Shown here: positions 3,501 to 61,411 of the stretch, one piece after another
How the letters are laid out: each line of letters starts with the position of its first letter
How positions within the stretch are numbered: the stretch's first letter is position 1
Assembly: GCA_028875225.1 (NCBI GenBank)
Contig: JAPPFB010000021.1
Coordinates: 225,831-289,830, forward strand
Direction: 5' to 3'
From: Chloroflexota bacterium
GTDB lineage: Bacteria; Chloroflexota; Dehalococcoidia; Bin125
DNA: 64,000 nucleotides
The notes under the pieces: generated by a model
Told to the model about the DNA's origin: nothing
What the model saw: the letters and a program-made list of their open reading frames with translations, nothing else
Database searches by the model: none
Translations under genes and position numbers: made by a program

Positions 3501-3755
3501 TGGGATCGGGAGAACACCGAACGATTCGAGCGGGCGATCAACCTGATTGTCGAGAACATCCGACTGGGAAGATTCCCGGCCAACCCAGGAACCGACGATC
3601 ACCGCGACCCGGGTTCGAGCTGCCGCTACTGCAGCTTCGACGCAATCTGCCCGGTTGATCGGTCAGTCCGCTGGAAGCAAACCAGGCGCGATCCGGCCCT
3701 TGCCGAGTATCTCGAGCTCGCAGAAGGGCCGACCGAAGTGGAGGAAGAGGCATGA
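588..3755 (+). CDS. addB: AddB/RexB-like helicase-nuclease subunit (RecB-family PD-(D/E)XK nuclease with C-terminal Cys cluster; no Walker A seen)
   Basis: C-terminal VIDYKTG nuclease motif and CRYCSFDAIC Cys cluster; stop overlaps addA-like start (ATGA); alternative ATG start at 609. Confidence 0.7.
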   Translation: MNESRIGMSLTVSAHSYGQDAERALIEAIDRLKTVSGRRDPLAPVTVVVPSPLAGYHIRRSLGRRPGGVVNVQVKPLRALIELIGSAPLANQGRRPLPAPLRAETIRNVVQDGASVFGDVPIDGPLLDHVMQRFDEFDELDLSQLDVIEAQAGLPAYLVGRYRAVLERTRDYYTDRDLAESATQALESQPVALRDIGAVIVYLPRQLSASHRAFVQKLAGCATVEILLGLTADRETVDRHVLASWVQDPDAESGEIPLAQQVVQSPDAEEEVRSAIRQIAASLVADTPIPLHRTAILYRQAEPYQRICAEQLDSAGFIWNGPSSQTLAQSIAGRTLVGLIGLMSESSISWLSDVAPWLAAAPISDAHGEPAPIARWNQLARRANLHRNPQDWTTRLNQYRAACAADLERLSRVADESKPGRRAWVDSEIRELDDFADFVVQVAGVALNTPPHARWSAYVQQARSLLELLLGTRSRFAAHMLDDEDIELARWDDVQQLLTELSWLDALGDAKPERFASAVRRGLGRSAGHHGRFGDGVYVGPLSSAVGLRWDVVYIVGAAEKSLPQRGSEDPLLPEPLRVRATLPVAADQSRRERADFLVALHAADHRVLSYPRADLRSQKARLPGRWLLESATELNAGGRVYASQIDRAPAQVVEATPSFEGSVIGAAMPADLQEFDLKSIRRSRRPQHHYLSNRFHSLGRGLIQRRERWRPLLTRWDGLIAEGASEVIARPHSAGALQDWATCPYRYFLGRVLRIEERDDLRDDLQITALDKGSLIHDILDQFLRQVTAQPASGTRWSTDDRRRLEAIANRTLDEAHQQGLTGRELLWRRERQRILDDLRTLLEQDDEHRNRFHAVQVDSELVFGDLPESKSPVGFRLDGGDILQLRGIIDRIDRSTTGGRLTVIDYKTGSERPKLSQLRDDPVVGGRYLQLPIYALAARRVYDLAAEATVGSAYWFISDRAGFKYNPVDWDRENTERFERAINLIVENIRLGRFPANPGTDDHRDPGSSCRYCSFDAICPVDRSVRWKQTRRDPALAEYLELAEGPTEVEEEA

Positions 3756-6700: not shown

Positions 6701-7054
6701 TACTGGCGCGAACTCTACGCCGCCGCCGAGGTCGACGGCGTCCTGCTCGACGGCTTCATCGATCTTCTCTACGAGTTGCCCAACGGCAATCTCGTCGTCG
6801 TCGACTACAAGACAGACGCGCTGCAGGCGGGTGAATCGCTCGCCGCAGCTGTCGAGCGCTATCGCCTGCAGGCCGCCGCGTACGCGCTCATTCTTCAGGA
6901 GTCGTTGGGCCGAACGGTGGAGCGCTGTGTCCTGCTGTTTCTGGAACCGAACGAGACCGTGGAGATCGCCAACCTGTCTGAATCGATCGCGGACGCGCGC
7001 GCCGCCCTGGCGACGCTGGCCGCGCCTGACATTGGGCGTCGCGCTACCGGGTGA
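3752..7054 (+). CDS. addA: AddA/RexA-like UvrD-family helicase with C-terminal RecB-type nuclease
   Basis: Walker A AGAGTGKT, DEFQD, QNFRS, TIHAAKGLEF, VAATRAR helicase motifs; C-terminal VVVDYKTD nuclease motif. Confidence 0.8.
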   Translation: MTLADQEARERIEHSLDETLFVEAGAGTGKTHQLVQRIVNLIASSQVQANEIAAITFTEKAASELYDRILEELDRQREAATDPDQAALYAVAAEQLEQAAIETLHAFAARILRLHPLEAGLPPGFRILDESEALLSFNRRWQDALDEILEDESLAEPLLAALDQRMTLEHLKELAAALHSDWDRAESQSAELQPPDLPQTVVEISAPLRSITSLRFDCDEPGDKLAQNLERMERVLDQVRIMANRDPSGAELRRYLRKADFKVGPGRGGRAAAWGGAERVKEIKERLTAQKQLPGLLLAAAFEPVLAPIHNALRAFVIAYADERRRMGELEFQDLLIRASRLLESHEGVALAVRSRFKRLLIDEFQDNDPLQTRIIDAITQHEHGRAFYVGDPKQSIYRFRRADIQQFNRVKHDQQDGLTKLTQNFRSAPGVTAFVNAVFRPLMAEGAPDQAAWEDLNPDRGPMADVDHAVTVVGTDYEGPVDATRVLEADALARIIADITASRWQVYDRAVEACRDARFADTAVLVPTRTGLRHLLPALEERDIPYRLESRSLVYGTREIRDLLNLLRAIDDPTDQIALVAALRSPAFACADDDLHRWRQAGGHWDYRRPTPTGVPDDDPVADSQRWLGRLAGRRWQLSVSELVGLCIRERRLMELAVAERQPRESWARYRFLHDQARAFCDGGGSTLGEFLDWAEHQAEADTQVIESVVPEEDHDTVRIMTIHAAKGLEFPIVVFAGLNTQPRSDPPRLLWSQDGRPEIHLSGDLQTSGFATLRKREDKLQQDEYVRRNYVAATRARDHLIVSLYRKTGQRCDARVIADVLQEFAVPCHVLEPDQIPDPPRPETSSSAEPESDTWADREKWIAQRADAVRRLSILPHESATGVVRLASGETEQRERQPNHEPDDGLPPWRRGRAGTAIGRATHAVLQVVDLRHPDDAEIRQAANAQAAAESLSGPAADAVGRLALRATRNTVVRQAVSADRYWRELYAAAEVDGVLLDGFIDLLYELPNGNLVVVDYKTDALQAGESLAAAVERYRLQAAAYALILQESLGRTVERCVLLFLEPNETVEIANLSESIADARAALATLAAPDIGRRATG

Positions 7055-15033: not shown

Positions 15034-15075
15034 GCTCCCCCTCGCAGGGGGAGCTGCCGAAGGCTGAGGGGGTCC
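15034..15075 (+). repeat. REP-like structured repeat, copy A (subfamily GCTGCC..GGCTGA)
   Basis: gctccccctcgcagggggagctgccgaaggctgagggggtccc. Confidence 0.8.
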
Positions 15076-19633: not shown

Positions 19634-19680
19634 CTCTCCCCCGCGAAGCAGGGGGGGAGATGCCGAAGGCAGAGTGGGGC
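19634..19680 (+). repeat. REP-like structured repeat, copy B (subfamily GATGCC..GGCAGA)
   Basis: ctctcccccgcgaagcagggggggagatgccgaaggcagagtggggc; its internal ATG creates a false ORF start at 19660. Confidence 0.8.
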
Positions 19681-33555: not shown

Positions 33556-33603
33556 CTTCTCCCCCCTCTGGGGGGAGATGCCGAAGGCAGAGGGGGGTGC
33601 CCT
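33556..33603 (+). repeat. REP-like structured repeat, copy C
   Basis: cttctcccccctctggggggagatgccgaaggcagaggggggtgcc between etfB and etfA. Confidence 0.8.
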
Positions 33604-37748: not shown

Positions 37749-37795
37749 CTCCTCTCCCCCCTCTGGGGGGAGATGCCGAAGGTAGAGGGGGGCGC
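37749..37795 (+). repeat. REP-like structured repeat, copy D
   Basis: ctcctctcccccctctggggggagatgccgaaggtagaggggggcgc; translated as false N-terminus in ORF-track start 37739. Confidence 0.8.
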
Positions 37796-41100: not shown

Positions 41101-41146
41101 ACCTCCCCCTCTGGGGGAGGTGCCGCGAAGCGGCGGAGGGGGCCGC
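41101..41146 (+). repeat. REP-like structured repeat, copy E (hairpin 2 re-paired as GCCGC-GAA-GCGGC)
   Basis: acctccccctctgggggaggtgccgcgaagcggcggagggggccgc. Confidence 0.75.
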
Positions 41147-41164
41147 TCCGGCTACCATGACCGC

Positions 41165-41509
41165 ATGTCATTCCTCGCCGCCACCCTGACCACCGCGGGC
41201 ATCGCCGCCGCCTTCGTCGCGACCCTGATCGGTCGTGAATCGCTCAGCCTCTACATCGTCTGTGCCGTGGTTGCCGCCGCCGGCCTCCTCCTGATGCTGC
41301 TGCACATCGCCCGACGCCGCCGCGACGCCGCTCCCTGGTACGCGCTCGCGCCCATGGCGATCGTCGTGGCGCTGCTCGGAGTGGCCGCCTCCGGAGCCAC
41401 TTGCGGAGTCGCCTGCATCGCCTGGGGCAGCCCGGTTGCCGCCGCAACCCTCGTCATCCCCGACATCCGCGGCTGGTTCGACCGCAAGCGACCGCTCAAA
41501 CGCGTCTAG
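41165..41509 (+). CDS. small hypothetical membrane protein
   Basis: 3 hydrophobic helices; ATG 41165 after repeat copy E. Confidence 0.45.
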   Translation: MSFLAATLTTAGIAAAFVATLIGRESLSLYIVCAVVAAAGLLLMLLHIARRRRDAAPWYALAPMAIVVALLGVAASGATCGVACIAWGSPVAAATLVIPDIRGWFDRKRPLKRV

Positions 41510-44500
41510 TTCGTCAGCCGCAGCTCGCGATTCAGCTCCAGCTTCAGGAACCAGCGCCAGGTCGCCAGCACGCCGACCACCAGCACTCCGATCAGTACGG
41601 CAAACGCGATCCCCAGGATCTGCCAGTCCGTCTCAATCTGGAAGGGCGGCAACACGGTGCGCCCGTTCTCGTCGATCTCCAGGTAGCCCAACAGCAACAG
41701 CGAGATCCGGTTGCCCAATAGCACGCCGAGCACCAGACCCGTGCCCACGATGATCGCGTACTCGAAAAACAGCTGGATCAGAATGCTCACGTTGCCCACC
41801 CCGACCGTACGCAACAACGCCATCTCCAGCCGCCGCTGACGCGCCGACACCGCCATCGACACCAGAAACGCCAGCGCCAACAGCAGCGAGATCGCGATGA
41901 AGGCCACCAGCAGAATCCCGGAGCCGCCCGCGGTGGTCAGTGGATCGCGTCCGCTGTCGTCAAGCCGCTGTTCGCGGTCGAAGAATGTGCCCAACGAATA
42001 GCGTGGACGCCTCAGTTCCTCTTTGGCCGCCTCACGCAGCGCCGGATCCTCTGCCAGGTCCAGCCATACCTCCGTCGGCGTCACCGTCGGGCGCAGCGCC
42101 GTCACCGATCCCATGTGGAACAGCGCGTCGTAGTCGGCCACGATGAATGACAGGACATCCGGGCGTAGCGTCGGGAACAGCTCCACGATGCTGGCCACGC
42201 GAGCCGTGATCACGACCGTATCGAGGCGCAGTGGATAGCGGTCACCGACGTCGAGGCGTTGCCGCTCGGCGAAGTCGGCGCTGACGATCGTGGGCAGCGT
42301 GCATCGGGTGTTGGTGCAGAACGACGGATCGGCAAAGTGCGCGGCGCGAAGTCCCGGCGATTGGCCGACTCCTGGCCGAAACGCCATGACGTACTCACCC
42401 GAAATCGGATCCTCGTCGCGCTCGAACTCAATCTCGTCGCCGGTGCCGCGTCTCTGGACGAACTCCAGCCAACGTCGATTCTCGAAATCCTCAATGATCA
42501 GCTCGCGTCCGTCCGGTTGAATCGCCGTCACCGCGTCGAAGTACACCGTGGCCGGCTCCGACACGAATAGACCAAACGGTTCACTCATGGTGATCGCATG
42601 CAGCGAATACGGTGGCGCCGCCCCCGAGCCGACGATCTCATTTTGGAAATCGATGTCGATTGCGGTCCAGGGACTCTCGGCGGCCGGCATCTCGAGTCCG
42701 CCGGCCGTGATGTACCGGCCGTCACCATCGCGCACACGCAGCCAGAATGATTGATCCGTCTCGCCCTCGCCCATCCGGACCCAGACCCGAAGCGTCTCGG
42801 TCTCCTCGGGAATGCCGACCCCGCGTCCGACAGGCGGCACATCGATCGCGCCGATCAACTCCTCAAACGTCAGTAACGACATGTCCTCGCGGAACCACAT
42901 CATCTCGACGGCGGCCTTCGGCTCGAGACCCAGGATCGTCACACTCGTGGTCGTTCCAACGCTGCGGCCCGCCGACACTTTGCTCCGATGAATCGAGGCA
43001 ATGCCCTCGACGCCCTCAATTGGCCCCAGTCGATCACGCACTCCGTTGGCGCTCGAATACCCGCTCTCTCCCAGCTCGACCCTGAACTCCACCCCGTTGT
43101 CGTATTCGATTCGTTCCTCGAGCGAGAGCTCGACCGTATCCGCGTACGAGGCCGCGAACGTGCCAAGCGCGGCGCCAAGCATCAGCAGGATGGTGAGGCG
43201 CGCCGCCGGGCCAACCGTGCGGCTGACGTACCGCAGCGTGGACGCGATCGACAGCGGGAACCGGTCGTAGGTCAGCCACGCGAAGAATCGATACAGATAC
43301 GGCAAGAATCGCAGAATCACCAGCGTCGCCGCCAGCGCGAACAGGATCGGGGTGCTCAACAACAATGGATCAGCCGAGAGTCCGCCCACGCTGTCCCGTT
43401 CAAACACGGTGCCCTTCAGATCCGCTTCGAAGATCAGGCCGACGGCCACGAAGACGAGTGCGACATCCAGGAAGTAACGCTGCAGCGCATTCGGACCGGC
43501 CGGACGCGACACGCCGCGCAGCCGTTCCGACAGCACCCGCGTACGACTCGCGATTACCAGCGGCGCCAGGGTGAACAGCACCGCCACGATCGCCCCCGCT
43601 GCCGAGAGCAGGAACGCCATGTCGGTCAGCGTCGTCGGAATCGTCTCCCCGCCGGTCAACGGTTCAAAGACCGGCGTGAAGCCAAGCAATCCGATCACGC
43701 CCATCGAAATGAACGGGGCCACCGCCGCCGCGACGATCGCGAGCAGAATTCCCTCGATCGCCGTATGCGAGATCACCTGAACGATCGATGCGCCGCGTGA
43801 ACGCATCGAAAACAGTTCTTCTCGACGCTGCGCGACCTGCACTCCCGACACGATCACTACATAGAACAGCGCGATCCCGACCACCTGCGCCAGCAACATC
43901 AGGATCGGTACCTGCGTGAAGTTCAAGTCCTTGACGAACGATTCCAGGCGCGGTTCGATCGGCGAACGCAGCGATGCTCCCACCGATCGCAGATCGGCGC
44001 GCAATAGGTCGAACGACTCCCGCGTATCGTCGAGCACCGCCACGTTCAGTTGGTCGGTGTCCAACTCCGAGATCCACATGGTGTTGAGCAGATATCCGCT
44101 CATCACTCGCGAGAGCGTGCTGTCGAACGTCTGCGAGGGAATGATTAGCGGAGCCGTGATTGGCCGAGCTGGTCCCGAATACACGCCGAACGTGATCTCG
44201 CGCGGTACCCGCGTCCAGTAGGAACTGACCGTGTTGTCGGGTTCCACGATCCCCGTGACCACGACGGGGATCAATCGCGTGATCGCCATGGTCGGCTCGC
44301 ACGGTGGTCGCGGAGGTGGGGGCGGTCCTCCGGGCGGAGGATCGGGTTCGCGGTCGCACTCGTCGTATCCGTCGATGATCTGCCATTCCGACCCCACCCC
44401 TACCCCGAACATCGCCGACCCACGCGGCGTGATGGCGACTTCAATCGGAGCGTCGAGCCAACCGGACTCGTTCAACTCCGGCGGACGCGGAAACCGCCCT

Positions 44501-44925
44501 TCGACCACATTGACGTTGTCCTCGGCCTCGTCCAGTGCGGCGAAGAACGCAGTCGTCGGGAACACCTGGCTCGGCCTCAGCGGGAAGTTGATCTCCGACG
44601 GCACGGTCGTCCGAAAACGCAAGCGTCGCGTCTCGAGATCGCCGAAACGGTCGCCAATTGAATCACTCGTGTAGTTGCGGGCAGACTCGTTTGGCCCGCC
44701 GGCGATCGGCAGTCCGTTGAGGAACGTAAACATCTGCCGACGTTCGGTCAGATCCTCACGCAAGCTGACGGTCAGTGACAGGTCGGACACGGCGCGCGTA
44801 TAGATCGTGGTCGAGGACATCAGCACGGCCGCAACCAGGATCCCTGCCGCGATCACCAATTGCAGCCGCCAGCTATCGCGCATGCGACGCAACACGAACC
44901 CCAGGACGGCGCCGAACGACTCCAC
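41506..44925 (-). CDS. giant FtsX-domain ABC-type permease (two FtsX/MacB-like permease modules), paralog 1
   Basis: 1139 aa, N-terminal TM then large extracytoplasmic region, repeated 4-TM FtsX-like blocks. Confidence 0.75.
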   Translation of the reverse strand: MESFGAVLGFVLRRMRDSWRLQLVIAAGILVAAVLMSSTTIYTRAVSDLSLTVSLREDLTERRQMFTFLNGLPIAGGPNESARNYTSDSIGDRFGDLETRRLRFRTTVPSEINFPLRPSQVFPTTAFFAALDEAEDNVNVVEGRFPRPPELNESGWLDAPIEVAITPRGSAMFGVGVGSEWQIIDGYDECDREPDPPPGGPPPPPRPPCEPTMAITRLIPVVVTGIVEPDNTVSSYWTRVPREITFGVYSGPARPITAPLIIPSQTFDSTLSRVMSGYLLNTMWISELDTDQLNVAVLDDTRESFDLLRADLRSVGASLRSPIEPRLESFVKDLNFTQVPILMLLAQVVGIALFYVVIVSGVQVAQRREELFSMRSRGASIVQVISHTAIEGILLAIVAAAVAPFISMGVIGLLGFTPVFEPLTGGETIPTTLTDMAFLLSAAGAIVAVLFTLAPLVIASRTRVLSERLRGVSRPAGPNALQRYFLDVALVFVAVGLIFEADLKGTVFERDSVGGLSADPLLLSTPILFALAATLVILRFLPYLYRFFAWLTYDRFPLSIASTLRYVSRTVGPAARLTILLMLGAALGTFAASYADTVELSLEERIEYDNGVEFRVELGESGYSSANGVRDRLGPIEGVEGIASIHRSKVSAGRSVGTTTSVTILGLEPKAAVEMMWFREDMSLLTFEELIGAIDVPPVGRGVGIPEETETLRVWVRMGEGETDQSFWLRVRDGDGRYITAGGLEMPAAESPWTAIDIDFQNEIVGSGAAPPYSLHAITMSEPFGLFVSEPATVYFDAVTAIQPDGRELIIEDFENRRWLEFVQRRGTGDEIEFERDEDPISGEYVMAFRPGVGQSPGLRAAHFADPSFCTNTRCTLPTIVSADFAERQRLDVGDRYPLRLDTVVITARVASIVELFPTLRPDVLSFIVADYDALFHMGSVTALRPTVTPTEVWLDLAEDPALREAAKEELRRPRYSLGTFFDREQRLDDSGRDPLTTAGGSGILLVAFIAISLLLALAFLVSMAVSARQRRLEMALLRTVGVGNVSILIQLFFEYAIIVGTGLVLGVLLGNRISLLLLGYLEIDENGRTVLPPFQIETDWQILGIAFAVLIGVLVVGVLATWRWFLKLELNRELRLTN

Positions 44926-45103
44926 CCGAACCCTCGCTGCCTGCTCAGTGTTCGCCGCCGCCGACTACCCGGTGGGACGCTGGAATTTGCCCGATCCCTA
45001 GTAGTCTACGAAGGCGGCGCGGTCGAACATACCCCCTCCAACCCCATCCGCCCCATCGGGCGGCTGCCACCGCTGGAAGCGCGACAGGGCGGCACCAAGC
45101 AGC

Positions 45104-48100
45104 ATGGGCGACATCTTCAGCTCGTTCCCCACGGCCTTCCGAATCGCGGTTCGGCGTCTCAACGGCAACCGTCGGCTGATGGCTGCCGTCGCCGTCGGCG
45201 TGATCCTCGCCGTGGCGCTGATGGCGTCCACGACGATCTACCGCAACGCGCTCCAGGACCTCGGTCTGCAGACTGACCTGCGCCGAGTCTCCGACGCCGA
45301 GCTCGACGTTCGCATCCTCAACGCCGCCCACGGGCTCTCCAGCGGCCTGGCCGATCAATCGTTCGAAGTGATTGATCGCCGGCTCAGAATCCCCCGCGAC
45401 TACATCTCTGAGACGAACCACTCGCTCACGACCGCCACCTTCTTTATGACCGCGGTGGGCGAAACGCCACCGGACGAAGATCCGCGTGATCGTGCCCGTG
45501 TGCTCTGGTTTGAAGGCATCCGCGACCATATTGAACTCGTCGATGGCCAATGGCCCGATCCGACTCCCGCCGCTACCCCTGACGAACCGCCAATAGTCGA
45601 TGTCGCGATGGGAACCGAGGCGGCCGCCTCGGGCGGCTTCAGCCTCGGCCAAATCCGGGACATCCATGCCTCCTGGCGAGACGATGCGCGACCGATCCAG
45701 ATCCGCGTCGTCGGACTCGTCCGGCCCATCGACTACAACGACCGCTACTGGGGCGTGCGCCGCGACCATTTCCACGTGCCGGTCGAGAAAACCGACGCGT
45801 TCGCATTCTTCGCGCCCAGGTCCACGCTAATCGACGCCATGGCCGGCTACATGCCCGAGCTGCGCGCCAGGCTGGAGGCCTACGCGCAGGTGGATCGATC
45901 GGCCTTTGTCGCTGACGACGCCGGCCTGGCCGCGATTCGCTTCCGCGCCGCCTTTGAGGCCATCGCCAAGGAGATCGAGCGAACCCGCGTCGAGACCGAG
46001 ATCGTCAACGTCCTCAACGACTACGAGACCAAGGAGTTTTTCTCCTCGATCCCGCTGCTCGTGTTGACCCTCCAGATCGTGGGGATCGTGCTCTTCTATC
46101 TGGTGCTCGTCTCCACCATGGTGGTCGACCGTCAGTCCGGAGAAGTCGCGTTGCTCAAGTCGCGCGGGGCCGGACTGGGACACATCATGTCGATCTCGAC
46201 GATCGAGGGACTGCTGCTGGTCGCGCTTGCCTTGGGAGTGGGACCGTTCGTCGCGCGCGAAGCGATTGCCTTCCTGGGCTACTCGCCCGCCTTCGAGGGG
46301 CTAACCGGAGGCGCGCGGCTATCGGTGGAATTGACCGGCGAGGTCTACATCTATGCCGCGATCGGCGCCGCCTTGAGCTTCATCGCCCTGATCTGGCCGG
46401 CCTGGCGATCCAATCGCAGCACCGTCGTACATCATGCGCGTTCCACCTCGCGACCCGAGGACAAACCGGTGTTCCAGCGCTACTACCTCGACCTCGTGGT
46501 CGTCGGAGTTGGCGCCCTGCTCTTCTTCCAGTTGCAGGAATCCGGGTCACTGGTCACCGAGGACCTCTTCGGCGGTCTGCAGCAGGACCCGCTGTTACTC
46601 ATCGCCCCCGCCGTGTTTGTCGTCACCGTGGCGGTCCTGTTCCTGCGCCTCTTCCCGCTGTTGCTCTCTGCCTTCGGCGGTGTTGCTCGCCTGCTCGGCG
46701 GCGCTTCGACGCAAATGGTCCTCTGGCATCTGACCCGCGCGCCCGTCCAGCCCGGTCGCCTTGCGCTGCTGCTGATCATGGCGACGTCGCTGGGCATGTT
46801 CGGCGGAACCTTCGGCGCCACGCTCGACAAGTCATTCGACGATCGAGCCGCCTACCGATCGGGAGCGCCGATGCGGCTGGCCGACTTGCGCAGCAGCGGC
46901 GCATCCGCGGACATGTTGGCGGCCGATCTCGCCAATGCCCCCGGCATCGGCAGAATCTCCTATGTCATCCGACAGAATGCCTCGTTCTCTCGCGGGCCGC
47001 TCGATGTGACCGACGCCTCCGTGCTCGGAGTGGATCCCGACTCGTTCGGCGACGTGCTCTGGTACCGCGACGACTTCGCACTTGACGATGTCCGCGAACT
47101 GATCGATCGGGTCACCGCGCCCGAATTTGAGGTCGAGCAGATCGTGATCCCCGCCGACGCCACCTATGTCGGTATGTGGCTCTGGTTACCCGACACCAGC
47201 GGGTCCATCGGCCCCAGCTTGAGGATGCGCGACGGCCAGGGACGCTATCGGGATGTCCGGCTGATCGGTCTGCCGCGAAGCCGCGGGTTCGGCGGCGGTG
47301 AACTCGAAGAAGGTTGGAGATTCCTCTACGGCAATCTCACAGAAGGTACCGGCGCACCGCACGTCGGTCCTTGGACCGTGCAGAACATCTCGATTCGCAC
47401 TGGCGGCAATGCCAATTTCTCTGGCGAGGTCGGCTATGACTCGCTTCAGTACACCACCGAAGCAGCACTGCCCGACGACGTCATCAATCTCGGGTTCCGT
47501 GAAGGCGTGATCGTCGAAAGCTTCGAAGAGCAGGGGCGTTGGACCGTGTTCACCGACACGACGCGCGCCGGCGCGCTCCCGGATGACGCCCGGCTCTCGC
47601 CCGACCAGGCCCGCGACGGCGAGTTCGGCATGCGCTATCGCTGGAATCGCGAAGTGCGTTCCGGCTTGCCTCGCGGGGTGCGGCTGATAGGCCCCGACGC
47701 CGCATTGCCGGTGATCGTGAGTCGGGATTTCCTCACGGAAGCGGCGCTTGACGAGGGCCAGCTTGCCCTGGTCGGCATGGCCGGCGTCTACATACCGATG
47801 CAGATCGTCGGCGCATTCGATCTCTTCCCCACCTGGGACCCAGAGGACGCCCGTTCGCTCATCATCGCCAACCGCGACTATCTCAACTATCGGATCAACC
47901 GAAACCCCGCCACCCTCGGCGCTGGCTCCCCCAACGAGATCTGGATCCAGCCGACCGACGACGATGGGTTGCGGCAACTGCGAACCTTCCTCGAGGTCAC
48001 CCCTCCCTGGAAACACGACCTGTACGATGTCGACGCCATTCGCAACTTGCAGGACGAGGACCCGCTCGTCGCCGCCGGTTGGGAAGGCCTGCTCTTCCTC

Positions 48101-48502
48101 ACCTTCATCGCGATCGTGCTGCTCGCAGCGCTCGGCTTCCTAGTCGCCTCTGTGCTGGTGGCTCAGCAACAACAGGGCGAATTCGCCGTGCTCAGAACGA
48201 TGGGCTTCTCCCTGCCCCAGGTGTTGCTTGTCGTCGGGGTCGAGAAACTCTTGATCATTGCCGTCTCAATGGCGCTCGGTACCGCCGTCGGTCTGCAACT
48301 CGGCACGATGATGCTCGAGTTTGTCGGCTTCATCGAAACCGGCGAGTCCGTCCTCCCGCCATTCGTCACCGTCACCGACTGGGCCACGATCGGCGGCGCC
48401 TACGGAGTCCTGGGCCTTGTCTTCCTCGGCGCCATCGCCGTGATCGTCGCCCTCTACATGAGAATGACCATCGGCCAGATTCTTCGAATCGGCGCTGAGT
48501 AG
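45104..48502 (+). CDS. giant FtsX-domain ABC-type permease, paralog 2 (divergent from paralog 1)
   Basis: 1132 aa; N-terminus aligns with paralog 1 (..RRL..RLM.AVAVG..LAVALMASTTIYRNALQDL..). Confidence 0.75.
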   Translation: MGDIFSSFPTAFRIAVRRLNGNRRLMAAVAVGVILAVALMASTTIYRNALQDLGLQTDLRRVSDAELDVRILNAAHGLSSGLADQSFEVIDRRLRIPRDYISETNHSLTTATFFMTAVGETPPDEDPRDRARVLWFEGIRDHIELVDGQWPDPTPAATPDEPPIVDVAMGTEAAASGGFSLGQIRDIHASWRDDARPIQIRVVGLVRPIDYNDRYWGVRRDHFHVPVEKTDAFAFFAPRSTLIDAMAGYMPELRARLEAYAQVDRSAFVADDAGLAAIRFRAAFEAIAKEIERTRVETEIVNVLNDYETKEFFSSIPLLVLTLQIVGIVLFYLVLVSTMVVDRQSGEVALLKSRGAGLGHIMSISTIEGLLLVALALGVGPFVAREAIAFLGYSPAFEGLTGGARLSVELTGEVYIYAAIGAALSFIALIWPAWRSNRSTVVHHARSTSRPEDKPVFQRYYLDLVVVGVGALLFFQLQESGSLVTEDLFGGLQQDPLLLIAPAVFVVTVAVLFLRLFPLLLSAFGGVARLLGGASTQMVLWHLTRAPVQPGRLALLLIMATSLGMFGGTFGATLDKSFDDRAAYRSGAPMRLADLRSSGASADMLAADLANAPGIGRISYVIRQNASFSRGPLDVTDASVLGVDPDSFGDVLWYRDDFALDDVRELIDRVTAPEFEVEQIVIPADATYVGMWLWLPDTSGSIGPSLRMRDGQGRYRDVRLIGLPRSRGFGGGELEEGWRFLYGNLTEGTGAPHVGPWTVQNISIRTGGNANFSGEVGYDSLQYTTEAALPDDVINLGFREGVIVESFEEQGRWTVFTDTTRAGALPDDARLSPDQARDGEFGMRYRWNREVRSGLPRGVRLIGPDAALPVIVSRDFLTEAALDEGQLALVGMAGVYIPMQIVGAFDLFPTWDPEDARSLIIANRDYLNYRINRNPATLGAGSPNEIWIQPTDDDGLRQLRTFLEVTPPWKHDLYDVDAIRNLQDEDPLVAAGWEGLLFLTFIAIVLLAALGFLVASVLVAQQQQGEFAVLRTMGFSLPQVLLVVGVEKLLIIAVSMALGTAVGLQLGTMMLEFVGFIETGESVLPPFVTVTDWATIGGAYGVLGLVFLGAIAVIVALYMRMTIGQILRIGAE

Positions 48503-48508
48503 CCGGCC

Positions 48509-49948
48509 TCAGCCCCCGCCGCCTCCAGCGCCACCGCCACCACCGCTGCCGAGGCGCTCCTCAACCACATCTTGCTGCGGCGCCCAGCGGGCGGCCGCGC
48601 CGTTGATCACCACCGTGGCAGCGGCGCTCACCGCCGCAGAGGCCCTCGCCAACATGCTCTCCTCAACCAGTTCACCGTGCACGAAGGTGGAACGCAACCT
48701 CGGCATGCCCACGGCCCAGAGCAGCAAGGCGACAAAGAACAGGATCCCCGGAATGGTCAACAGATAGCGGACATTCACCACATCGGAAGCGAGGCCGTTG
48801 GCGAGGATCATCAGGGCCATGATCCCGCCCGCAAACATCGCATAGAGGCTCATCACCCGACCGCGAATCGCGTCCGGTACGACCGCCTGGATCATCACGC
48901 TCGACAGCGCCATAAACATCGCCTGGGTCGCGCCGACCAGCGCGGCGCCCAGGATCGCGATCGGCAAACTGCCGGCGAGTCCCAGGATCGGCATCAGGAT
49001 GCCGCTGGACAGGCCACAGAAGAGCATTAGCCGGCCTCGAATTGGCCCGGCGGGAACCATCGAGAGCGTCACGGTTGCCACCAGCGCCCCGCCCCCTACA
49101 CCCATCACCAGGTAGCCGTACTCATTCGCGCCGCCGTTGAGCACGTTCTTGGCAAACACGACCAGCAGCGCGTCGAACGACATCACCAGCATGCAGTGCA
49201 GCGCCGTCAGCGCAATCAGCATCCGCACCCCCCGAGCCCGTCCCAGGTAGGCCAGTCCTTCGCGAACGTGCGTCGCCGCGTCGCGGAGGATGCCCGACGT
49301 CGTCCCGGCCACGATCCCACCCGTCGAGCGGACCTTAATCCGGGTCATCTGCCAGACTGAAAGCGCCAGCAGGAATGACGCGCCCAGGAACACCCAGCCG
49401 GGCCCGAACTCGGCCAGCACCGGACCTGCCACCGGGCCAATCACGCGCGAGCCGAATTGCATCATCGAGGCCAGGGTGATCGCTGAGAGCAACGCCGCCA
49501 TCTTGACCGTGTTGGGCAGCAGCGCCGCCTGAGCCGGCATCTCGGCGGAACGGATGATCCCCGAGAGCGCCGTCACCAGAATCAGGTTCCAGAGCGCGAT
49601 CTCGCCGGTGAAGGCCAGGACGGCCAGGGCGAGTGCCAGGATCCCGGCGCCAATCCGGCTGAGCATCACCACCCGTGCGCGGTCAAAGCGGTCCGCCAGC
49701 GCGCCGCCGATCGGAGCCAGCACCCACGGGCCAATCGCGGCGAAGTACACCACCCCGACCGCCCAGCCGCTGTTCGTCAGGTCCCCCGCGAGCCAGCCCC
49801 GAGCCGTGATCAACGCCCACAGGGAAATCGCCGATAGGCCCGCCGCATAGAACAGCTTGCGGTACTCAAGCGACTCCATCGCCGGGAACAACCGCAGCAG
49901 GCGCCCGGGCTCCTGAGTCCCTGGCTCCATGTTCCTCAGTTGCGACAT
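48509..49948 (-). CDS. MFS transporter (EntS/MFS_3-like) with C-terminal poly-Gly tail
   Basis: 12-TM profile; ...ALADRFDRARVV...; ends GSGGGGGAGGGGG. Confidence 0.8.
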   Translation of the reverse strand: MSQLRNMEPGTQEPGRLLRLFPAMESLEYRKLFYAAGLSAISLWALITARGWLAGDLTNSGWAVGVVYFAAIGPWVLAPIGGALADRFDRARVVMLSRIGAGILALALAVLAFTGEIALWNLILVTALSGIIRSAEMPAQAALLPNTVKMAALLSAITLASMMQFGSRVIGPVAGPVLAEFGPGWVFLGASFLLALSVWQMTRIKVRSTGGIVAGTTSGILRDAATHVREGLAYLGRARGVRMLIALTALHCMLVMSFDALLVVFAKNVLNGGANEYGYLVMGVGGGALVATVTLSMVPAGPIRGRLMLFCGLSSGILMPILGLAGSLPIAILGAALVGATQAMFMALSSVMIQAVVPDAIRGRVMSLYAMFAGGIMALMILANGLASDVVNVRYLLTIPGILFFVALLLWAVGMPRLRSTFVHGELVEESMLARASAAVSAAATVVINGAAARWAPQQDVVEERLGSGGGGGAGGGGG

Positions 49949-50011
49949 CGATTGACTCCGCTCTCCGACAGACCATGCGGCAACGTCTGGCCGCCTGCTC
50001 GGCGCTGCGGG

Positions 50012-51427
50012 CTAGTCGCCGCCGCCCAGCTGTTCCTCCACCACGCTCCGTTGCGGGGCCGGACGCGACGCCAGGACCACGGGCCGCAGCGCAGCGGAAG
50101 CCGTGGCCGCCGCCTGCCGTGCCACCTCACGCGCCATCCGCCGGCCCTCTTCGACGAGTTCGCCGTTGCGAATCACTGACCGGATCCCCGGGAGGACCAA
50201 TGCGATCAGCATGATCGCGGCGAAGATAAAGCCGGGCGCAACCAACAGCAGACGAATGCTGATGTAATCCGCCGCCAGCCCATTGACCAGGATCATCACC
50301 GCCATGATCCCACCCGCGAACATCATGTAGAGGCTCATCACGCGACCGCGCACGGAATCGGGCAGAACAGCCTGGATCATGGCGCTGGTCAGGACCATAA
50401 ACATCGCCTGACTTGCCCCCGCAATCACGCTGCCGATTAGCGCCAACAGCAACGAATCCACCAATCCGACCCAGACCAGGGAAAGCCCCGAAACGATCCC
50501 CGCGACGATGAAGACACGCCCGCGGATTGCGCCAATCGGCAACATCGACAATCCCACCGACGAAATCAGCGCCCCGCTGCCGAGCGCCATCAGCAGGTAT
50601 CCGTACTCCGACTGCCCGCCGCCCAGGATCAGGTCCGCGTAGGCCGGCAACAGCGAGAAGTCGAAGGCCATCGTGAACATGCAGTGCAACGAGACCATGA
50701 TGATCATCAACCGCACTGACGGCGTACGACCGAGATAGCGCAATCCATCGCGAATATGTCCGACGGTGTCGCGAAGCAGTCCGCCCGTATGACCCGCGAT
50801 GCCACCCGTCGATCGAGTAGTCATCCGGGTCATTTGCAGAATCGACAGCATCAGGAACAACGCCGCCCCGACGAACACCCACTCGGCGCCGAATGCTTGC
50901 AGAACTGGACCCGCAACCGGGCCGATCACCTTAGACCCGAACTGCATCATCGAGGCCATCGTGACCGCGCTCAACAAGGCATGCAGCTTGACCGTGTTCG
51001 GCAACAGCGCCTGCAGCGCCGGCATCTCTCCGGAGCGAATGATGCCGGAGATCAACGTGATGATGACCAGATTCCAAATTGTCAACTGACCGCTAAACGC
51101 CAGGAAGGCAAGTCCGAGCGCGCACAGTGCCGCCCCGCAGCGGCAGATAATCACGATCCTGGCGCGATCGAAGCGGTCCGCCAGCGCGCCCGCGAACGGC
51201 GCCAGCACCCATGGAAAGATCGCCGCAAAGGTGACGATCCCGGTGCCCGATGGATTGCCGGTCAGCTCATAGCCCAACCAGCCGCTGGCGACGATCATCG
51301 CCCACAGGGAAACGGAGGACAGCCCCGCCGCGTAGAACATGCGGCGGTACTCGAGATACTGCATCGCCGGGAAGATGCGGAGTAGGAACCCTTGCGGTCT
51401 GGCCTCGACCTCGGTCTGTTGACTCAT
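50012..51427 (-). CDS. MFS transporter, tandem paralog of 48509..49948
   Basis: Collinear similarity throughout (LRIFPAMQYLEYRRMFYAAGLS...). Confidence 0.8.
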   Translation of the reverse strand: MSQQTEVEARPQGFLLRIFPAMQYLEYRRMFYAAGLSSVSLWAMIVASGWLGYELTGNPSGTGIVTFAAIFPWVLAPFAGALADRFDRARIVIICRCGAALCALGLAFLAFSGQLTIWNLVIITLISGIIRSGEMPALQALLPNTVKLHALLSAVTMASMMQFGSKVIGPVAGPVLQAFGAEWVFVGAALFLMLSILQMTRMTTRSTGGIAGHTGGLLRDTVGHIRDGLRYLGRTPSVRLMIIMVSLHCMFTMAFDFSLLPAYADLILGGGQSEYGYLLMALGSGALISSVGLSMLPIGAIRGRVFIVAGIVSGLSLVWVGLVDSLLLALIGSVIAGASQAMFMVLTSAMIQAVLPDSVRGRVMSLYMMFAGGIMAVMILVNGLAADYISIRLLLVAPGFIFAAIMLIALVLPGIRSVIRNGELVEEGRRMAREVARQAAATASAALRPVVLASRPAPQRSVVEEQLGGGD

Positions 51428-51553
51428 CCGCGCAGCCTTCGCTCAATGCTCCGCATGTTACGGCCTCTCGCACCGTCGTGACTAGCCGCTGCTCGACCGA
51501 CAGCTACGCTATCGGCGATACCGCAGTCCATCCCATCCAGAGCAGGCAGTCAC

Positions 51554-53236
51554 ATGACCTCGCAAGACCACCTCCGCGAACGCTCCAGCGTCCTCGTCGA
51601 CGGCCCCAGTCGCGCCGCCGCCCGATCTCAGTTGTACTCCGTCGGCTACGACGATGAAGCCCTTGCCAAACCGTTGGTCATGGTCGCCCACAACTGGATC
51701 GGCACCATGCCCTGCAACTTCTCCCACCGCGAGCTCGCCCAGGACGTGATGCGCGGCATCCGCGAGGCCGGCGGCACCCCGATGGAGGTGAACACCGTCT
51801 CCATCTCCGATGGCATCACCATGGGCACCGAGGGCATGAAAGCCTCGCTCATCTCCCGCGAAATCATCACCGACTCGATCGAACTCTGCGCCGTCGGCTA
51901 CGCCTTCGACGCCGCCGTCGTCATCTGCGGCTGCGACAAGACCATCCCCGCCGCCGCCATGGCCATGGCCCGGATCAACATCCCTTCCGTCGCGCTGTAC
52001 TCAGGCTCCATCGCCCCCGGACGCCACCACGACGGCCGCGGCCTCACGATCCAGGACGTCTTCGAAGCCGTCGGCCAGCACTCGGCCGGCACGATCGACG
52101 ACGACGAGCTGCACCAGGTCGCACTCAACGCCTGTCCCGGCGCCGGTGCCTGCGGAGCGCAGTACACCGCCAACACCATGGCCACCACGCTCGAGTTTCT
52201 CGGCCTCTCGCCGATGGGCTCCGCCACCGTCGGCGCCACCGACCCGCGCAAGCACAACGTCGGCGAGGCCGCCGGCCAGCTCGTCATGGACGTCCTCCGC
52301 CGCGGGGTCAAACCGCGCGACATCCTCACTCGTGAAGCCTTCGAGAACGGCATCGCCTGCGCCGCCTCGACCGGCGGCTCGACCAACGTCGTCCTCCACC
52401 TGCTCGCCCTGGCCCGCGAGGCGGGCGTCGAACTCAGCATCGACGACTTCGACGAAATCTCCGAGCGCACCCCGCTCATCGGCGACCTCCGCCCCGGCGG
52501 CCGCTACGTCGCGCTCGACATGGACCGCGCCGGCGGCACTCCGCTGCTGGCCAAACGACTACTGGAAGCCGACAAGCTCCACGGCGACGCCACAACCGTC
52601 ACCGGACAGACCATCGCCGAGGCCGCCGCCGACGCCCAGGAAACGCCCGGCCAGGACGTGATCCTGCCCGTCGACCAGGCGCTCAAGGAGACCGGCGGCC
52701 TCGTCATCCTCAAGGGCTCGCTCGCCCCGGACGGCTGCGTCGTCAAGGTCGCCGGCTACGAGCGTCAGCTCCAGACCGGCCCCGCCCGAGTCTTCGAGCG
52801 TGAGGAAGACGCGATGGACGCCGTCACCCATAACCGGATCAACGCCGGCGACATTGTCGTCATCCGTTACGAGGGTCCCAAGGGAGGCCCGGGCATGAGA
52901 GAAATGCTCGGCGTCACCGCCGCCATCGTCGGAGCCGGACTGGGCGAGTCCGTCGCCCTGCTCACCGACGGCCGCTTCTCCGGAGCGACCCGAGGCCTGA
53001 TGGCCGGCCACGTCGCCCCCGAAGCCTACATTGGCGGCCCCATCGCCCTGGTTGAAGAGGGCGACCAGATCACCCTCGACATCGCCAACCGCGAACTCAA
53101 CCTCGACGTCGACGACGCCGAGCTCGCCCGCCGCCGAGCCAACTGGACTCCACCATCCCCCAACTACGCCAACGGAGTCTTCGCCAAGTACGCCACCCTC
53201 GTCTCCGGAGCCGAACGCGGAGCCGTCACGAGCTAG
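51554..53236 (+). CDS. ilvD: dihydroxy-acid dehydratase (IlvD/EDD family)
   Basis: CDKTIP Fe-S motif, ...[12 protein letters not shown]...; 560 aa. Confidence 0.8.
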
Positions 53237-53243
53237 GAACAAA

Positions 53244-53290
53244 GAGCTCCCCCTCCGGGGGAGCTGTCGCGAAGCGACTGAGGGGGCTCG
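53244..53290 (+). repeat. REP-like structured repeat, copy F (hairpin 2 re-paired as GTCGC-GAA-GCGAC)
   Basis: gagctccccctccgggggagctgtcgcgaagcgactgagggggctcg. Confidence 0.75.
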
Positions 53291-58920: not shown

Positions 58921-60104
58921 CCTACCTCCCCCTCGACCACCTCTTCGTCCTCGACCTCACCCGCGCCCGCGCCGGACCCACCGCCACGCGACAGCTCGGC
59001 GACTGGGGCGCCGACGTGCTCAAGATCGAGCAGCCCGAGGTCCCCGGACAGGGCGAAGGCGTCACCGGCGCCCGCGAGTCCTCCGACTTCCTCAACCTGC
59101 ACCGCAACAAGCGCTCCCTCACCCTCAACCTCAAGGAGCCTGAGGCGGTCGAGATCTTCCTCTCCCTCGTCGAGCGCGCCGACGTCGTCGTCGAGAACTA
59201 CCGCGCCGACGTCAAGCGACGCCTCGGCATCGACTACGACGCCTGCCGCGCCCGCAACCCGCGCATCGTCTACGGCTCGATCTCCGGCTTCGGACAGGAC
59301 GGACCCTACGCCTGGCGCGCCGGCGTCGACCAGATCGCCCAGGGCCTCGGCGGGATCATGTCCGTCAACGGACTGCCCGGCTCGGGACCCGTCCGCGTCG
59401 GCATCCCCATCGCCGACCTTACCGCCGGCAACTTCCTCGCCCAGGCCATCCTCATCGCCCTGATCGAGCGGGAGCGCTCCGGCGAGGGCCAGTGGGTCCA
59501 CACCTCGCTGCTCGAGGCCCAGATCGCCATGCTCGACCTCCAGGCCACCCGCTGGACCATCGACGGAGAGGTTCCGCCGCAGGCCGGCAACGACCACCCC
59601 ACGCTGATGCCCACCGGCGTCTACGAGACTTCCGACGGCCACATCAACATCGCCGCCTCCGGCGGCGTCATGTACACCCGACTCTGCCGAGCCATCGGCG
59701 CCGAGGAGCTCCTCGACCACCCCGACTACGCCAGCTCGGTCCGCCGCTCCAAGAATCGAGTCGCACTCAACGAGGCCATCAACCAGCGCACCCGAACCAA
59801 CACCTCCGAGCACTGGATCCAGTGCCTCAACGAGGCCGGCGTCCCCTGCGGACCGATCTACGACATCCCCGGAACCTTCGACGACAAACAGGTCAAGCAC
59901 CTCGACATCGCCCGCCAGGCCCCGCACCCCGAGCGAGGCGAAATCACCGTCGTCGGACAACCGATCAACCTCGCCCGAACTCCCCAACCCGACAAGATGC
60001 GCCTCGGCACCCCCGCCCTCGGCCAACACAACCATGAAGTCCTCACCGACCTCGGCTACACCCCCGAATCCATCACCGACCTCCAAAATCGAGGAGTCAT
60101 CTAG
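58917..60104 (+). CDS. CoA transferase family III (CaiB/BaiF)
   Basis: 395 aa; DHLFVLDLTRARAGPTATRQLGDWGADVLKIE... family signature. Confidence 0.85.
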   Translation: MTYLPLDHLFVLDLTRARAGPTATRQLGDWGADVLKIEQPEVPGQGEGVTGARESSDFLNLHRNKRSLTLNLKEPEAVEIFLSLVERADVVVENYRADVKRRLGIDYDACRARNPRIVYGSISGFGQDGPYAWRAGVDQIAQGLGGIMSVNGLPGSGPVRVGIPIADLTAGNFLAQAILIALIERERSGEGQWVHTSLLEAQIAMLDLQATRWTIDGEVPPQAGNDHPTLMPTGVYETSDGHINIAASGGVMYTRLCRAIGAEELLDHPDYASSVRRSKNRVALNEAINQRTRTNTSEHWIQCLNEAGVPCGPIYDIPGTFDDKQVKHLDIARQAPHPERGEITVVGQPINLARTPQPDKMRLGTPALGQHNHEVLTDLGYTPESITDLQNRGVI

Positions 60105-60108
60105 CGTG

Positions 60109-60160
60109 CTCCCCCTGCTCCCCCTTTGCAGGGGGAGCTGCCGAAGGCTGAGGGGGTCCC
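60109..60160 (+). repeat. REP-like structured repeat, copy G1 (tandem with G2)
   Basis: ctccccctgctccccctttgcagggggagctgccgaaggctgagggggtcccc. Confidence 0.8.
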
Positions 60161-60200
60161 CCGCCGCAACCAACTCTCCCTCTCGCCCGTCCGTTTCCGC

Positions 60201-60250
60201 TCTCCCCCCGCGAAGCGGGGGGAGATGCCGCAGGCAGAGGGGGGCTCCCC
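60201..60250 (+). repeat. REP-like structured repeat, copy G2
   Basis: ctctccccccgcgaagcggggggagatgccgcaggcagaggggggctccc. Confidence 0.8.
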
Positions 60251-60300
60251 TGAGTACCAACTACCCTCCAACTAACCCGCCAACCCGCCGGAGACCCCCA

Positions 60301-61107
60301 ATGAAGAACCACGTCCCCCTCGACACCGACAAGATGCTCGCCTGGTCAGAGGACGGCATCGGCTGGATGGTCTTCAACAACCCCGACAAGCTCAACGCCA
60401 TGGGCGTCGCCATGAACGCCGCTATCCCCACCATCATGCACACCTTCCGCGACGACCCCGACGTCCGCGTCGTCGTCATGGCCGGCGCCGGCGACCGCGC
60501 CTTCGTCTCCGGCGCCGACATCTCCGAGTTCGAAGCCCAGCGCTCCAACCCCGAGACGATCAAGAAGTACGACGAAATCGGCGCCGCCGCCGGTCGCGCC
60601 TACGGCGAGCTCGACAAGCCGATCATCGCCATGATCCAGGGCTTCTGCATGGGCGGCGGCCTGCTCACCGCGCTCCGCGCCGACCTCCGCATCGCCTCCG
60701 ACGACTCCCAGTTCGGTGTCCCCGCCGCCCGCCTCGGCCTCGGCTACGGCTATGGCGGCGTCAAGACCCTCTGCGACCTCGTCGGCTTCCCCGCCGCCCA
60801 GGAAATCCTGCTCACCGGCAAACGCTTCCCCGCCGCCGACGCCGCCCGCTGGGGCCTCGTCAACCGCGTCACCACTCGCGACGACCTCGAACCCACCGTC
60901 CACGAGCTCGCCGCCACCATCGCACAGAACGCCCCCAAGACCATCCGAGCCATCCGCCGAGCCATCCAGGAAATCCCCAAAGACCCCGACCACCGAAACC
61001 TCGACGAAGTCAACGCCCTCGTCCAGGCCTGCTTCGCCTCAGCCGACTACAAAGAAGGCCGAACCGCCTTCATGGAAAAACGCCGCCCCCAGTTCCGCGA
61101 CGCCTGA
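60301..61107 (+). CDS. enoyl-CoA hydratase/isomerase family protein
   Basis: 268 aa; FVSGADISEF...GFCMGGGLLTALRADLRIAS. Confidence 0.85.
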   Translation: MKNHVPLDTDKMLAWSEDGIGWMVFNNPDKLNAMGVAMNAAIPTIMHTFRDDPDVRVVVMAGAGDRAFVSGADISEFEAQRSNPETIKKYDEIGAAAGRAYGELDKPIIAMIQGFCMGGGLLTALRADLRIASDDSQFGVPAARLGLGYGYGGVKTLCDLVGFPAAQEILLTGKRFPAADAARWGLVNRVTTRDDLEPTVHELAATIAQNAPKTIRAIRRAIQEIPKDPDHRNLDEVNALVQACFASADYKEGRTAFMEKRRPQFRDA

Positions 61108-61317
61108 CCTCCGATCCCCTCTCCCTCTGGAGAGTTGCGCGTAAACATTTGAAGAAGTCGCCCCCGCGAAGGCAGGGGCCGCCCGACCACTGCTCGCCTA
61201 ACTCCGATGCCCCGCACTTGCCTGCCCCTGGCTTGAACAGGGGATGCGGGGCCCAGACCCAGATCGCCGCCCAACCCCGTCATTCTCGCGCAAACGGGGG
61301 AATCTCGCCCCTTCACG

Positions 61318-61367
61318 CTCTCCCCCCGCGAAGCGGGGGGAGATGCCGAAGGCAGAGGGGGGGGCTC
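61318..61367 (+). repeat. REP-like structured repeat, copy H
   Basis: ctctccccccgcgaagcggggggagatgccgaaggcagagggggggg. Confidence 0.8.
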
Positions 61368-61411
61368 TACGCCCCTCAACTACGCTTGCCCTATCCCCGA
61401 TAGGACGAGCA

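Follow-up and report, generated by a model that had tools for sequence, protein, structure and literature searches.

A 64,000-nucleotide stretch of a Chloroflexota bacterium genome (GenBank assembly GCA_028875225.1, contig JAPPFB010000021.1, positions 225,831 to 289,830; hereafter the window) carries nine copies of one repeat of about 40 nt. The locus raises the question of why a small hairpin in the 3' half of this repeat (hairpin 2) keeps its ability to fold in copies whose sequences differ. The original prediction, which focused on two copies termed E and F, read these differences as compensatory changes that preserve a selected structure. The pairing statistics of hairpin 2 and its relatives support its conservation as a structure, and it is best understood not as an autonomous element but as a linker that joins a duplex to a third strand in a fold of three parts. 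The repeat would be a REP-like, non-coding structured element, conserved in its design as a triple helix of the purine type (pyrimidine-purine-purine, or 'class II') into which one strand folds back, a reading to which we give a probability of about 0.6.

The repeat and its second hairpin

A generic search of the window for a C-run followed by two G-runs recovered the nine copies, all on the + strand (Table 1). The full three-block pattern has eight exact matches in the window and none in 100 dinucleotide-preserving shuffles, and all nine + strand occurrences of GGGGGAG in the window lie inside copies of the repeat. The element reads N1-CTCCCCC(C), loop 1, (G)GGGGGAG-N2, a T followed by hairpin 2, and N3-GAGGGGG(G). 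The pyrimidine (Y) arm CTCCCCC pairs with the purine (R) arm GGGGGAG in hairpin 1; this pairing and the covarying N1-N2 pair are present in 9/9 window copies, and hairpin 1 is predicted by DNA folding.

Reading both sites confirmed the hairpins quoted for copies E (GCCGC-GAA-GCGGC) and F (GTCGC-GAA-GCGAC). Seven further copies do exist, as had been stated, but of the two hairpin sequences ascribed to them CTGCC-GAA-GGCAG occurs in none and ATGCC-GAA-GGCAG in three; the others are CTGCC-GAA-GGCTG (twice), ATGCC-GAA-GGTAG (once, with a G.T wobble) and ATGCC-GCA-GGCAG (once). The Watson-Crick stem of the seven is actually 4 bp (TGCC/GGCA) or 3 bp (GCC/GGC) long, not 5 bp. Copies E and F had been taken for 5-bp stems substituted on both sides, which is mostly incorrect: they are 4 nt longer, with a G-C plus a C-G pair inserted around GAA to give a GCGAAGC core and a stem 2 bp longer, and one genuinely compensatory change, C-G to T-A, is found in F. 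Covariation within the window amounts to this double substitution and the paired insertions, which is suggestive and not significant; it becomes solid only with external copies.

Relatives were collected by scanning one genome per GTDB species with the pattern CTCCCCC, 2-10 nt, GGGGGAG, 11-19 nt, GAGGGGG, in which hairpin 2 is left unconstrained. The scan yielded at least 120 stretches, and all external-genome counts given here are among the matches listed. For hairpin 2, 123 unique elements with a linker starting TG were used, drawn from over 100 genomes. Aligning the nine window copies with MAFFT gave a result that was not structure-aware, owing to insertions and deletions in loop 1 and hairpin 2, and outside-in pairing registers and a gap-free length class were used in its place.

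Across the 123 elements, 93.8% of hairpin 2 stem positions are paired, compared with 80.0±1.1% (maximum 83.0%) when the 3' halves were permuted within length classes (2000 permutations). Stem position 2 is occupied by T-A (49), C-G (37) or G-C (20) and position 4 by C-G (57), G-C (21) or A-T (15), while the basal G-C and the position-3 C-G pairs are almost invariant. The gap-free 15-nt class that includes E and F (21 distinct sequences) has 99% of cells paired and double-sided changes at 3/5 pairs, with a covariation score of 0.512 vs 0.112±0.035 (reached in 0/500 shuffles); slid registers pair at 34-48% only. The pattern was replicated in 180 further unique copies from IMG/VR viral and prophage contigs, in which Watson-Crick pairing stands at 93-99% and the various pair types recur. 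The larger alignment proposed as a check thus gave significant covariation in the E/F length class, and the view of hairpin 2 as a constrained structure kept by two-sided changes, rather than as drifting junk, is borne out.

Two companion expectations, an invariant GAA loop and an invariant stem length, did not hold. The window copy at 60201 has a GCA loop, and the listed relatives have GAA (40), GGCA (34), GGA (15), GCA (11), GACA (4) and GTA (2) on stems of 3-7 bp, all of the GNA or GNNA form. Nor are E and F diverged descendants of the other seven copies: they belong to separate, widespread sub-families, copy F being 40/41 identical to a copy in Caulobacter vibrioides (locus L100).

The heptamer GCGAAGC recurs as a module in the window, at positions 19643, 41125, 53269, 60210 and 61328, where it serves as loop 1 (copies 2, 8 and 9) or as the hairpin 2 core (E and F). 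Its presence at both apical sites implies that either apical region can be extended by one and the same mini-hairpin. The C-GNA-G triloop, and d(GCGAAGC) especially, is said to be a classic extra-stable DNA mini-hairpin, from work by Hirao, Yoshizawa et al. The repeat-family loops GAA, GGA, GCA and GTA are likewise closed by C-G, but unlike isolated oligonucleotide or origin GCGAAGC hairpins, the mini-hairpin here would be a linker inside a larger fold. Such loops fit a fold at the DNA level better than one at the RNA level, where GNRA or UNCG would be expected. A one-mismatch match to the hairpin 2 consensus (CCGCCGAAGGCAG) was also noted on the - strand at 46668-46680, inside a coding region and lacking the flanking C- and G-runs; it was set aside as a chance match and not a tenth copy.

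Three-way covariation of the duplex and the 3' block

The 3' block GAGGGGG repeats the purine arm GGGGGAG of hairpin 1 in mirror order and is not its complement. Among 216 parsed elements, the N1/N2/N3 combinations are T/A/A (91), C/G/G (49), T/A/T (43) and G/C/T (13), with no other combination above 6. A code that admits C-G.G, T-A.A, T-A.T or G-C.T is obeyed by 187 of the 193 unique elements with a paired N1-N2 (97%). The N2/N3 rule holds in 189/206 elements vs 115±6 after permutation (about 56% expected), and it was replicated in the IMG/VR set (173/180 vs 92.5±5.6). In the window, 8/8 triplets fit in eight of the nine copies, copy 2 having one mismatch.

The triplet code goes beyond descent within sub-families, because the same hairpin 2 core is found with two types. 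Of the 68 hairpin 2 cores, 34, 31 and 8 are found with the respective canonical triplet types, and nine cores carry two canonical types each, with all three positions switched and the core unchanged. The same scan returned long-arm relatives, CCCTCTCCCCC..GGGGGAGAGGG-TYA-GGGTGAGGGGG, in which the code is obeyed at three further positions (92-97%). Hybrids with long arms and a TGCC-GNA-GGCG hairpin where TYA is expected (L016, L048, L070) link both designs.

As far as these sequences speak, the N1/N2/N3 covariation is an antiparallel purine-motif triplet code. T is reportedly the preferred third-strand base opposite a C-G inversion in the purine motif, according to work from the Dervan laboratory. 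G.G-C, A.A-T and T.A-T are antiparallel purine-motif triplets (PMC4666352). The T.A-T triplets (43 cases) are legal only on the G-rich strand, which marks it as the selected strand, an argument also made in PMC4666352. A rival pairing, with the 3' G-run antiparallel to the C-run plus loop 1, was rejected for N3, which is pairable in 38/123 elements vs 35.8±3.5. Copies 3 and 4, both with loop TCT, contain a segment CCCCCCTCTG that is perfectly complementary to CAGAGGGGGG; this pairing forms an alternative 10-bp long-range hairpin, which is the minimum-energy fold as RNA and is not conserved in the family.

In the proposed fold, N1-CTCCCCC would pair with GGGGGAG-N2 to give the 8 bp of hairpin 1, and N3-GAGGGGG would occupy the major groove antiparallel to the purine arm, with G.G-C, A.A-T and T.C-G as the triplets. 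Hairpin 2, with its invariant T, G-C-closed stem and GNA or GNNA cap, would serve as a structured linker that reverses the chain and delivers the third strand. Such a linker needs only to be foldable, which would account for compensatory and length changes in its stem, as in E and F. Most likely the fold would be adopted by the G-rich DNA strand while transiently single-stranded, which here is the non-template strand of the upstream gene; the DNA level is favored because purine-motif triplexes reportedly do not form in RNA (PMC4666352).

A protein-binding site in double-stranded DNA, or a chance likeness among G/C-rich low-complexity stretches, is very improbable as an alternative. In a genome of 65% GC, runs of G and C count as simple sequence, and shuffled elements fold fairly well, but the exact matches to the three-block pattern have no counterpart in the shuffles. 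To a duplex-reading protein, moreover, the mirror repeat GGGGGAG/GAGGGGG does not offer two equal half-sites, and the covariation of hairpin 2 and of N1/N2/N3 requires single-strand folding.

Placement and spread of the element

Gene positions were taken from the deposited calls for metagenome scaffold ERZ23495471 scaffold_63 (242,556 bp), which contains the window. In 7 of the 8 occupied intergenic regions (15024-61411), the first element lies 9-13 nt past the stop codon of a + strand gene. Seven of eight gaps fell within any 5-nt window in 15 of 2,000,000 simulations with uniform placement per intergenic region (p≈1e-5). Five of these seven regions lie between co-directional genes, with 22-56 nt to the next start, and two are convergent; the stop-to-element spacers are G-poor and not conserved in sequence. 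Since all nine copies are in sense orientation, the G-rich, triplex-competent strand is the non-template strand. The genes themselves are ordinary chromosomal ones, including thyX, etfBA, ilvD, CoA-transferases and enoyl-CoA hydratases.

Table 1. Copies of the repeat in the window, parts of copies E and F, and distance from the preceding stop codon
Feature	Type	Positions	Strand	Sequence or detail	Preceding gene	Gap from stop	Further context
Copy 1	C-type	15034..15072	+	GCTCCCCC-TCGCA-GGGGGAGC-T-GCC-GAA-GGC-T-GAGGGGG	thyX	10 nt	between convergent genes
Copy 2	A-type, degenerate	19635..19679	+	loop 1 GCGAAGCA; R-arm G7AG; third strand AGAGTGGGG, one mismatch	dienelactone hydrolase	13 nt	
Copy 3	A-type	33558..33597	+	TCTCCCCCC-TCT-GGGGGGAGA-TGCC-GAA-GGCA-GAGGGGGG	etfB	12 nt	between etfB and etfA; 34 nt from copy end to etfA start
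Copy 4	A-type	37753..37792	+	hairpin 2 TGCC-GAA-GGTA with G.T wobble	metallophosphoesterase	10 nt	
Copy E	G-type	41102..41142	+	CCTCCCCC-TCT-GGGGGAGG-T-GCCGC-GAA-GCGGC-G-GAGGGGG	1086-aa gene	9 nt	DNA fold, hairpin 1 + hairpin 2: -14.5 kcal/mol, z -2.98
E, N1		41102	+	C			
E, Y-arm		41103-41109	+	CTCCCCC			
E, loop 1		41110-41112	+	TCT			
E, R-arm		41113-41119	+	GGGGGAG			
E, N2		41120	+	G			
E, T		41121	+	T			
E, hairpin 2		41122-41126 / 41127-41129 / 41130-41134	+	GCCGC / GAA / GCGGC			
E, N3		41135	+	G			
E, third strand		41136-41142	+	GAGGGGG			
Copy F	C-type	53246..53286	+	GCTCCCCC-TCC-GGGGGAGC-T-GTCGC-GAA-GCGAC-T-GAGGGGG	ilvD	9 nt	DNA fold: -14.0 kcal/mol, z -2.80
F, N1		53246	+	G			
F, Y-arm		53247-53253	+				
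F, loop 1		53254-53256	+	TCC			
F, R-arm		53257-53263	+				
F, N2		53264	+	C			
F, T		53265	+	T			
F, hairpin 2		53266-53270 / 53271-53273 / 53274-53278	+	GTCGC / GAA / GCGAC			
F, N3		53279	+	T			
F, third strand		53280-53286	+	GAGGGGG			
Copy 7	C-type	60117..60156	+	loop 1 TTTGCA	CoA-transferase	12 nt	
Copy 8	A-type	60201..60244	+	loop 1 GCGAAGC; hairpin 2 loop GCA			direct tandem with copy 7
Copy 9	A-type	61319..61364	+	loop 1 GCGAAGC; third strand GAG8	ECH	211 nt	47 nt before MmeI-like gene

This placement bears on a second explanation, an RNA element of the 3' untranslated region, in which hairpins 1 and 2 would act as a terminator without a U-tract, a 3' exonuclease barrier or a modulator of translation termination (a role reported for E. 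coli REPs near stop codons), the G-run being incidental or engaged in alternative pairing. The sense orientation of 9/9 copies, the stop-codon spacing in 7/8 regions and the five co-directional regions, such as etfB-etfA, all suit it. With canonical terminators not enriched (12 vs 10.2±3.4), 3'-end signals of another kind may be required; folding as RNA is strong (-21 to -25 kcal/mol), and copy 4 is a G.U-compatible variant. We nevertheless consider this account rather unlikely. It leaves the mirror covariation of N3 with N2 unexplained, its loops are GNA and not the RNA-typical GNRA or UNCG, and the counts of G.T vs A.C mismatches do not differ clearly between strands. The z-scores of the RNA folds are weak (-1 to -1.8), other genomes show both orientations as well as inverted pairs, and the potential intrastrand triplex (PIT) elements, also named TMECO, have no terminator or promoter activity in E. 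coli (PMC4666352). The repeat does resemble an intrinsic terminator as a G+C-rich hairpin directly after a gene, but unlike one it has no U-tract after either hairpin and also stands within the etfB-etfA operon. A terminator scan found none on the + strand at the elements, which continue into GAGGGGG and G/C-rich sequence.

Beyond the window, the listed matches come from Mesorhizobium, Rhizobium, Agrobacterium, Brucella, Caulobacter, Brevundimonas, Sphingomonas, Acidimicrobiia, metagenome-assembled genomes (MAGs) of Dehalococcoidia and other Chloroflexota, and others. Seven Chloroflexota loci (L058, L068, L081, L090, L108, L053 and L113) share the window's own sub-types, and copy 1 is one base off a Dehalococcoidia MAG copy. 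The repeat is also abundant in the viral and prophage contigs of IMG/VR. No copy was found in 80 metagenomic loci around IlvD relatives (63-77% identity, 479 kb), compared with nine in the 64 kb studied here. Taken together, this distribution is what a proliferating repeat, specific to the lineage and possibly spread horizontally, would show, and not what is expected of a conserved cis-regulatory site. In other Chloroflexota loci placement is looser, and the element occurs in both orientations, 0-44 nt from gene ends as placed by rough and noisy gene calls.

Several arrangements of copies were recorded in passing. In Rhizobiales (L002, L012, L017, L080) the elements form divergent inverted pairs about 70 nt apart, and in Caulobacter (L021, L043, L100) convergent pairs of one G-type and one C-type copy. 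In the window, copies 7 and 8 (region 60105-60300) are 84 nt apart and of different sub-types, and a partial duplicate of the Y-arm (GCTCCCCCT) lies directly 5' of copy 7. Planctomycetota, Verrucomicrobiota, Acidobacteriota, Thermoanaerobaculia and further phyla carry BoxC/TMECO-like long-arm motifs (L015, L018, L032, L035, L061 and others).

These distributions raise a third explanation, a selfish mobile repeat of the REP/REPIN or MITE kind, copied as single-stranded DNA by a RAYT-like HUH/Y1 enzyme that recognizes hairpin 2, so that structure would be selected for propagation and not for the benefit of the host. It is possible but doubtful. Copy density in the window is high (nine in 64 kb). 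The absence of copies near ilvD homologues of 63-77% identity implies lineage-specific proliferation, and near-identical copies across phyla, such as copy F and its Caulobacter counterpart, the abundance in viral and prophage contigs, the strict strand bias in the window, the inverted pairs of Rhizobiales and Caulobacter and the invariant G-C and C-G pairs of hairpin 2 are all in keeping with it. Against this, no RAYT or Y1_Tnp transposase occurs among the called genes of the roughly 70 kb inspected, and a GTAG-type 5' tetranucleotide is absent. Neither terminal inverted repeats nor a target-site duplication were apparent: inspection by eye of the 25-nt flanks of the nine copies found no shared flanks or duplications. 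The relatives at 63-77% ilvD identity lack the element. BoxC shows no association with mobile elements (PMC4666352), and mobility alone would leave the mirror code and the 9-13 nt spacing unexplained.

Other features of the window stand apart from the repeat. A TAG stop, or a CTAG target site, had been considered as a signal (6/9 copies) and was rejected because roughly every second gene of the window has a TAG stop, a share that is itself unusual for a 65% GC genome. The + strand bears most genes, yet has an excess of C and A along its whole length (GC skew -0.05 to -0.20, cumulative -1.39). The regions 588-7054 and 61412-64000 encode an AddAB-like helicase-nuclease pair, LexA, ParE and PIN toxins, a PaREP1-domain gene and an MmeI-like restriction-modification gene, and dnaN (L122 5404-6552) lies immediately 5' of the window start.

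Relation to known elements and meaning

BoxC/PIT elements were reportedly the subject of work by Hoyne, Maher et al. in 2000. BoxC, PIT and TMECO are one family found in E. coli and other bacteria (Holder et al. 2015, PMC4666352). TMECO is a class II (Y-R-reverse-Hoogsteen) intrastrand triplex motif with the consensus CCCTCNCCC N3-6 GGGNGAGGG N3 GGGNGAGGG and 3610 occurrences in 262 proteobacterial genomes; as single-stranded DNA it forms a stable triplex in vitro by circular dichroism and nuclear magnetic resonance, and it is associated with local genome variability (PMC4666352). The present repeat is, like BoxC/PIT/TMECO, intergenic, G/C-rich, highly conserved and present in many copies and many taxa, with C-rich, G-rich and mirror G-rich blocks on one strand. 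It occurs singly or as inverted pairs of two sub-types, as TMECO occurs in pairs of type A and type B.

The differences are equally definite. Arms are 8 nt long (NCTCCCCC / GGGGGAGN / NGAGGGGG) vs 9 nt in TMECO (CCCTCNCCC), so that the window copies fail the consensus. In place of the 3-nt loop 2 of TMECO (TTA/CCG), loop 2 is 12-16 nt in the window and up to about 20 elsewhere, and contains a GNA-capped hairpin; it exceeds the limits of both published triplex searches (1-6 nt and 0-10 nt; PMC4666352). That paper makes no mention of the host taxa found here (Chloroflexota, Rhizobiales, Caulobacterales, Sphingomonadales), and TMECO has neither the strand bias nor the distance bias that the window repeat shows (PMC4666352). 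The repeat is therefore a relative of TMECO and not a member, because its arms and loop 2 fail the family definition, while the long-arm matches of the scan are the BoxC/TMECO motif itself.

The REP, BIME and REPIN repeats of Enterobacteria and Pseudomonas (20-40 nt, hundreds per genome) offer a second likeness: they too are structured repeats outside coding sequence, placed at the 3' ends of genes and within operons. Many E. coli REPs reportedly lie at most 15 nt from the stop codon and affect translation and mRNA stability, according to Liang, Rudd and Deutscher (2015). Unlike REPs and REPINs, the repeat has no GTAG-type 5' motif and forms no inverted doublets in the window, and its mirror third strand is absent in REPs. 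With H-DNA it shares purine-motif triplet chemistry and the requirement for a mirror repeat; H-DNA, however, arises in one long homopurine-homopyrimidine duplex tract under supercoiling, whereas here all three triplex strands would come from one DNA strand and two of them would first form a hairpin. At gathering thresholds Rfam had 0 matches in the window, and scanning 60050-61450 by E-value yielded noise only (E>1). Literature searches by sequence strings returned unrelated eukaryotic papers only. Searches on RIME, Bru-RS, Sm-repeats and REPs in Chloroflexi gave nothing usable.

Several points weigh against the triple-helix reading. The evidence that this variant forms a triplex is sequence covariation alone, so triplex formation in vivo is something we infer. 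In vivo dimethyl sulfate footprinting of TMECO gave no stable triplex, and double-stranded DNA stayed duplex (PMC4666352). Only three or four triplet types occur, and the number of independent switches among them is uncertain without a phylogeny. Sense orientation in all nine copies, together with the stop-codon spacing, points away from DNA and towards the transcript or the ribosome, and the invariant G-C and C-G pairs of hairpin 2 suggest that, in addition to any linker function, its sequence is recognized, possibly by a protein. Finally, the two-hairpin DNA fold exceeds shuffles by a modest margin (z -2 to -3), and ordinary folding programs cannot score triplexes.

The triplex, the RNA- or translation-linked and the selfish-repeat explanations are not mutually exclusive. 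As to role, our best guess is that the element may be a structural repeat, either self-propagating or tolerated, by which the 3' ends of genes are marked and polymerases can be impeded there. A bolder version is offered tentatively, as having well under an even chance: these repeats, spread across phyla, would encode an 8-triplet purine-motif fold of single-stranded DNA tethered by a GNA mini-hairpin, their covariation would reflect selection for the triplex in living bacteria, and in this genome the element would be a non-template gene-end signal placed 9-13 nt past stops.

The result bears on whether DNA triplexes form and matter in bacterial cells, a question on which the BoxC/TMECO work reached triplexes in vitro only and no function. 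Covariation, the standard evolutionary proof for RNA helices, is here extended to a third strand, in hundreds of copies from distant phyla. Published triplex searches, with loops of at most 6 or 10 nt, miss a large class in which a hairpin serves as the linker. The 9-13 nt stop-codon spacing in this genome is a separate, unexplained regularity. For annotation, these elements account for many conserved 'hairpins' after genes in high-GC genomes and are not to be confused with riboswitches, small RNAs or terminators.

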